Source: Escherichia coli (GTDB lineage Bacteria; Pseudomonadota; Gammaproteobacteria; Enterobacterales; Enterobacteriaceae). From it: 64,000 bases of DNA. The stretch lies in the NCBI RefSeq assembly GCF_003334765.1, contig NZ_QOWT01000009.1. One strand, 5' to 3'. The position numbers and the translations under genes are program-made. Positions 52,579 to 52,663 of the stretch are shown here, piece after piece; the first letter of the stretch is position 1; every line of letters begins with the position of its first letter. The notes beneath the pieces were generated by a model. The model saw only the letters and a list, made by a program, of their open reading frames with translations, made no database searches and was not told the origin of the DNA.

Positions 52579-52589
52579 AAATCGCTTTA

Positions 52590-52607
52590 CCTCAAGTTAA
52601 CTTGAGG
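52590..52607. promoter_or_regulatory. SoxR binding site (sox box) in soxS promoter
   Basis: Perfect 18-bp palindrome cctcaagttaacttgagg between soxR start and soxS start. Confidence 0.85.
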
Positions 52608-52663
52608 AATTATACTCCCCAACAGATGAATTAACGAACTGAACACTGAAAAGAGGCAGATTT

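Follow-up and report, generated by a model that had tools for sequence, protein, structure and literature searches.

We take the published sources for the soxS promoter of Escherichia coli K-12 and its SoxR operator, the closest described system to the locus considered here, to be Hidalgo and Demple (1994, 1997), Hidalgo et al. (1998), and, for the structure (PDB 2ZHG), Watanabe et al. (2008). [quoted passage not shown] SoxR binds this dyad as a homodimer in both the reduced and the oxidized form, of which the oxidized form alone activates (PMC4411124). The same behavior is described in PMC6612552, where SoxR is bound in both redox states and active only when oxidized, where it represses its own gene, and where its site is placed downstream of the soxR -10 element. 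Occupancy of the site by SoxR and the dependence of soxS induction on SoxR are both published (PMC4411124, PMC6612552). In the crystal structure of the SoxR-DNA complex, the DNA is bent and twisted or untwisted, with less distance from the -35 to the -10 element (PMC4551924, PMC8867992), and gel shifts with SoxR proteins have established that the CCTCAA...TTGAGG repeats are needed for binding (PMC4411124, PMC8867992). In biosensors and in electrogenetic circuits, the SoxR site has been widely reused as a part that responds to redox state (PMC7228920, PMC6612552).

Two further systems bear comparison. The MerR operator in the merT promoter of Tn501 and Tn21 is the founding case of activation from inside a spacer that is overlong, and it shares with the soxS promoter a dyad operator between hexamers that are 19 bp apart, a divergent regulator gene, a regulator that is bound with and without its signal, and activation by untwisting of the DNA (PMC9303308, PMC4551924). 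It differs in its operator sequence and in its signal, which for MerR is Hg(II) bound by three cysteines and for SoxR is oxidation of a [2Fe-2S] cluster. The second comparison is with SoxR boxes found without soxS, as at the mfsA-soxR locus of Stenotrophomonas maltophilia and the sco7008/sav_7218 class of Streptomyces. Here the CCTCAA-N6-TTGAGG half-sites, the fusion of the box to the -35 hexamer, the 19-bp spacer, the divergent orientation of an adjacent soxR, and the covering of the soxR start by the box are all held in common with the soxS promoter (PMC4411124, PMC8867992, and the boxes sampled below). The differences are in the target, which is not a second regulator but an efflux pump or oxidoreductase or the like; in the -35 hexamer, which is usually TTGACC and not TTTACC; and in the central bases of the box, for example CTGCAG in S. 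maltophilia.

Here, we describe the sequence, position, 19-bp geometry, flanking genes, and cross-species conservation of a palindrome in a 64-kb stretch of DNA, the whole of which is called the window. The palindrome is, almost certainly, a part of the soxS promoter that serves the redox sensor SoxR as its operator, acting by the mechanism proposed below. Against the K-12 soxS promoter, the window is identical in the 18-mer, the -35 and -10 hexamers, the 19-bp spacer, and the 85-bp intergenic region, and soxR and soxS are 100% identical in the E. coli genomes listed. There is no difference between the two; they are the same locus. The element is thus already known and entirely ordinary, and nothing new is added on the site itself. 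Recognition of a textbook regulatory element from sequence alone serves as a positive control, and the element matters as the single DNA switch by which redox stress is passed to the soxRS response, that is, to superoxide defense and efflux-mediated antibiotic tolerance.

The soxR-soxS interval and its flanking genes

The features of the locus, in window coordinates, are as follows.

52114..52578, minus strand: soxR coding sequence, 154 aa, MerR family (open reading frame; TIGR01950; PDB 2zhg/2zhh; E. coli annotation)
52579..52663, unstranded: soxR-soxS intergenic region, 85 bp, between divergent open reading frames
52585..52616, plus strand: invariant promoter core CTTTACCTCAAGTTAACTTGAGGAATTATACT, 32 bp (alignment of 13 enteric loci)
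52586..52591, plus strand: soxS promoter -35 hexamer TTTACC (position counted; recurs 5' of boxes elsewhere)
52590..52607, unstranded: SoxR operator (SoxR box) CCTCAAGTTAACTTGAGG (same sequence as the E. coli SoxR box in PMC4411124)
52592..52610, plus strand: soxS -35/-10 spacer, 19 bp (counted; the usual length is 17 +/- 1)
52609..52614, minus strand: candidate soxR promoter -10, a perfect TATAAT (read from sequence; inside the invariant 32-bp block)
52611..52616, plus strand: soxS promoter -10 hexamer TATACT (position counted; signature recurs at 19 bp elsewhere)
52652-52656, plus strand: likely soxS ribosome-binding site AGAGG (inferred from sequence)
52664..52987, plus strand: soxS coding sequence, 107 aa, AraC/XylS-family activator of the superoxide regulon (open reading frame; NF007584; annotation)

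Both flanking genes gave strong and specific matches to their protein families. The soxR reading frame scored 248 bits against the SoxR equivalog model TIGR01950 (NCBIfam; cut-off, 117), its translation carries the C-X2-C-X-C-X5-C motif of the [2Fe-2S] site, and it matches PDB 2zhg/2zhh ("Redox-sensitive transcriptional activator soxR") across all 154 residues. The soxS reading frame scored 228 bits against the SoxS equivalog NF007584 (cut-off, 174), with the match covering residues 1 to 107 of 107. A 1-kb query spanning the locus matched all 5,426 complete E. coli genomes, and the matches listed were 100% identical and annotated soxR, soxS, and pdeC. The gene neighborhood is likewise as in E. 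coli, namely, ghxP, soxR, soxS, pdeC, yjcB, ssb, and uvrA. On the equivalog scores, the PDB match, the genome matches with their annotation, and this neighborhood, the window is assigned to the E. coli chromosome and the locus to soxRS. The earlier note had already named the locus correctly, taking the palindrome as confirmation; the two protein matches are better ground for that identity than the palindrome is.

The palindrome itself, CCTCAAGTTAACTTGAGG, is a perfect 18-bp inverted repeat at 52590-52607 in the soxRS divergent promoter, as had been claimed. Its arms (52590-52598 and 52599-52607) are 9 nucleotides each, gapless, and 100% complementary, with the dyad between 52598 and 52599, and the start of soxR lies 11 bp away. 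The interval under which it had been reported, 52579-52663, does contain it but is the whole of the 85-bp intergenic region. Read over 52000-53400 of the window, the sequence context is ...GCTTTACCTCAAGTTAACTTGAGGAATTATACTCCCC...

Several other features surround the two genes. The Hfq-binding small RNA sraL (RyjA) was found at 51981-52121 on the plus strand (Rfam RF01408, 153 bits), convergent with soxR and reaching over the final 8 nucleotides of the soxR coding sequence (52114-52121). A hairpin of 13 bp at 52090-52120 precedes a T-run and resembles a terminator of the convergent sraL/soxR pair. On the other side, only 2 bp separate the stop codons of soxS and of the convergent pdeC, and a terminator for soxS must consequently fall in the pdeC coding sequence. 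Within the last codons of pdeC, a GC-only 8-bp inverted repeat (CCCGCGCG, an 8-nucleotide loop, and CGCGCGGG) occupies 52996-53019; it begins 9 nucleotides past the soxS stop and has no plus-strand T-run. The pdeC reading frame (52990-54585, minus strand) is listed as 531 aa from a TTG, and RefSeq annotates 528 aa (1,587 nucleotides), the true start being probably 3 codons downstream of the listed one. Elsewhere in the window, the Rfam family naRNA4, a REP-derived "nucleoid-associated" RNA, gave eight matches, at 4304-4580, 7056-7136, 33954-34137, and 44673-44743. At 4304-4580, three of the eight are arranged in tandem with a period of 100 bp, and the matches are ordinary E. coli REP/BIME clusters.

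Chance expectation and conservation among enteric bacteria

The perfection of the palindrome is by itself weak evidence. The window holds three perfect palindromes without a spacer and with arms of at least 9 nucleotides (31396-31415, 52590-52607, and 61511-61528), of which at least one of the other two is in coding sequence, and first-order Markov simulations of 64 kb gave a mean of 0.36 such palindromes, with at least one in 30% of the simulations. It is this comparison, 0.36 expected against 3 seen per 64 kb, that makes perfection alone a poor guide, and it gives some footing to the reading that the repeat arose by chance and is itself without function, with the soxS promoter regulated elsewhere. 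That reading fails when the particular sequence and its place are considered. All 18 of the 18 bases agree with the SoxR box quoted in PMC4411124; the 18-mer occurs once in the 64-kb window and was absent from 100 shuffles; and within the 85-bp soxR-soxS interval, the expected number of 9+9 palindromes is only about 85 x 4^-9, or 3e-4. A search of the window for a second SoxR box, with up to 3 mismatches allowed, found none.

The two other palindromes are of a different character. The one at 31396-31415, CGTTATTGGTACCAATAACG, is perfect over 20 bp and longer than any other in the window. It is inside a coding sequence, presumably that of the selenoprotein gene fdhF, and stands about 20 nucleotides upstream of an in-frame TGA and of a SECIS_2 Rfam match at 31431-31485; it is probably coincidental, though beside a structured recoding signal. 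The other, at 61511-61528, is a perfect 18-bp palindrome of A and T only, ATTATTAAATTTAATAAT, in AT-rich surroundings about 210 bp past the 3' end of an aromatic aminotransferase gene (tyrB-like, 61740-62975, minus strand).

Conservation of the SoxR box and its surroundings was followed at two depths. Within the species, 5,379 of the 5,421 matching E. coli genomes show at least 99% identity to the window over the 96 bp of 52575-52670. For the comparison across species, the pattern CCTCAAG-N4-CTTGAGG was sought in one genome per GTDB species, giving a sample of at least 120 loci with 121 boxes; the pattern fixes 14 of the 18 palindrome bases, and half-site variability is not measurable from this sample. 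Among the matches listed, 12 loci carry both soxR and soxS homologs, and they come from Escherichia albertii, Citrobacter, Enterobacter, Superficieibacter, a Klebsiella sp., Rosenbergiella, and Pantoea, with SoxR proteins down to 67% identity. Together with the window, these make 13 sequences, and the 32-bp block CTTTACCTCAAGTTAACTTGAGGAATTATACT (52585-52616) is identical in all 13. The search pattern imposes 14 of the 32 columns in this core and leaves 18 free to vary, and all 18 are invariant: the central TTAA, the -35 hexamer, the AATTA linker, and the -10 hexamer. Outside the block, the intergenic sequence of the 13 loci diverges and its length varies considerably. A repeat without function would not be expected to keep a pattern-free center and both hexamers while its neighboring sequence drifts, nor to recur with its -35 hexamer and 19-bp geometry in distant phyla, as described below. 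A chance palindrome is ruled out by sequence identity, position, and conservation, which are also the three points that carry the argument for a SoxR box, and we give a chance origin next to no weight.

Promoter geometry in the window and beyond the enteric bacteria

The geometry of the soxS promoter was counted directly. From TTTACC to TATACT, the spacer is 19 bp, which is inside the 19- to 20-bp range on which the earlier note had staked its reading of an operator between overlong-spaced hexamers. The overlong spacing is therefore borne out; the placement needs a small correction, since the palindrome overlaps the last 2 bp (CC) of the -35 hexamer, ends 3 bp short of the -10 hexamer, and so is not strictly between them. 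The further suggestion of a binding site for a MerR-type activator agrees with the identity to the published SoxR box and with the divergent gene, which encodes SoxR. A dyad operator overlapping or between the hexamers, a 19-bp spacer, and a divergent regulator nearby are all present, and on this architecture the locus is placed in the MerR class of promoters, which are activated from within a 19- to 20-bp spacer. A sigma-70 consensus scan limited to spacers of 16 to 18 bp did not report the soxS promoter; this is expected of a MerR-type promoter with a 19-bp spacer and is not counterevidence. On the minus strand, the perfect TATAAT and the soxS -10 have 4 bp in common, and 1 bp downstream of this TATAAT comes the SoxR box. 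We infer from the sequence that this TATAAT may be the soxR -10, and the positions of both transcription start sites are to be read as inferred in the same way.

The wider sample indicates how rigid this arrangement is. TTGA or TTTA stands directly 5' of the box on one strand, giving TTGACC or TTTACC, in 82 of the 121 boxes listed, where about 2 would be expected by chance. With these 82 oriented by that hexamer, a -10 signature made up of its two most diagnostic positions, A at position 2 and T at position 6, follows at exactly 19 bp in 72 of them and in 60 of the 70 non-enteric boxes among them, and at other spacings from 15 to 23 bp it was seen at most 12 times each among the 82 and at most 5 times each in the non-enteric set. 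The central 4 bases vary freely in other taxa among the boxes listed, and the -35 and -10 positions are fixed. The remaining 39 boxes listed look unrelated, 12 of them having A/T-run flanks resembling a terminator hairpin and 27 having no promoter-like flank. From these comparisons, the architecture of the window appears as the conserved architecture of SoxR targets, and a by-product is a quantitative account of its rigidity, with the box joined to the -35 and with the -10 at exactly 19 bp, across Proteobacteria and Actinobacteria.

The same observations bear on whether the palindrome acts in RNA, as a terminator, an attenuator, or a structure in a 5' untranslated region, and not as a protein-binding site in DNA. 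Folded as RNA, it gives a stem of 7 bp and a loop of UUAA, with an energy of -9.5 kcal/mol (z = -4.2 versus shuffles), but the z-score is uninformative here, since any perfect palindrome folds well. The stem is not followed by a T-run, a terminator scan does not report the site, and the palindrome is upstream of the soxS -10 and hence outside the soxS transcript; on these grounds, an intrinsic terminator or regulatory RNA hairpin was rejected. On the other strand, a soxR transcript from the TATAAT at 52614-52609 would start inside the palindrome and would include at most part of it. The free central bases and fixed -35 and -10 positions in other taxa are, moreover, the pattern of a promoter. 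A function in RNA is accordingly judged extremely improbable.

Another possibility is that the site is an operator, though for a different regulator, whether a MerR-family paralog such as CueR, ZntR, or MlrA or an unrelated dimeric protein. A dyad within a 19- to 20-bp spacer is common to the whole MerR family (PMC1526738, PMC9303308), so the geometry would suit several of its members. The adjoining divergent gene points to one of them in particular, because its product, at 248 bits on the SoxR model, reached only 40 to 54 bits on the CueR, ZntR, and MerR models, well below their cut-offs (for MerR, 40 bits against a cut-off of 151). The association also holds in other genomes: 27 of the 121 boxes listed are within 75 bp of a soxR homolog, each of these 27 has the -35 flank, and each is directed away from soxR, that is, with the divergent arrangement seen in the window. 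The published requirement of SoxR for the CCTCAA...TTGAGG repeats in gel shifts (PMC4411124, PMC8867992) argues in the same direction. Binding by a regulator other than SoxR is, in our estimate, a very slim prospect, and the analysis as a whole found no evidence that contradicts the assignment to SoxR.

Proposed mechanism and IS1 insertions at the soxS promoter

SoxR binding, DNA distortion, redox control, and autorepression are taken from the literature, and with them the operator can be given a mechanism. A SoxR homodimer would occupy the dyad in both the reduced and the oxidized state, with each winged-helix domain reading one CCTCAAG half-site. The 19-bp spacer is 2 bp overlong, and RNA polymerase would be unable to engage both hexamers on one face of the helix; basal soxS transcription would be low because the -35 and -10 hexamers are out of phase. 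The trigger would be oxidation of the SoxR [2Fe-2S] clusters, whether by superoxide or by redox-cycling compounds, or else their nitrosylation, upon which the activated dimer is proposed to bend and untwist the operator, shortening the spacer, rephasing the hexamers, and turning soxS on. SoxS would then activate its regulon. In the other direction, the bound dimer would sit just downstream of the minus-strand TATAAT and across the soxR transcript start, and soxR would be repressed in both redox states because that start is covered.

Insertion variants of the promoter were encountered among the E. coli genomes. In the clinical strain E138 (NZ_AP022351.1), IS1X4 lies between the SoxR box and the soxS -10, at 1725-2509 of the extracted locus; the insertion corresponds to window positions 52604-52612 and is marked by a 9-bp target duplication, GAGGAATTA. 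The -35 hexamer and operator are thereby placed about 770 bp away from the -10. A promoter scan of E138 reported no consensus promoter reading from the IS1 end into soxS, and the soxS response of this strain has probably been either lost or rewired. In strain AR Bank #0346, an IS1 is likewise located within the soxR/soxS match. That clinical E. coli repeatedly uncouples soxS from SoxR through such insertions in the AT-rich spacer is a speculation that we think improbable. If it were true, soxS would be silenced or constitutive, depending on whether a hybrid promoter forms at the IS1 end, with consequences for multidrug resistance.
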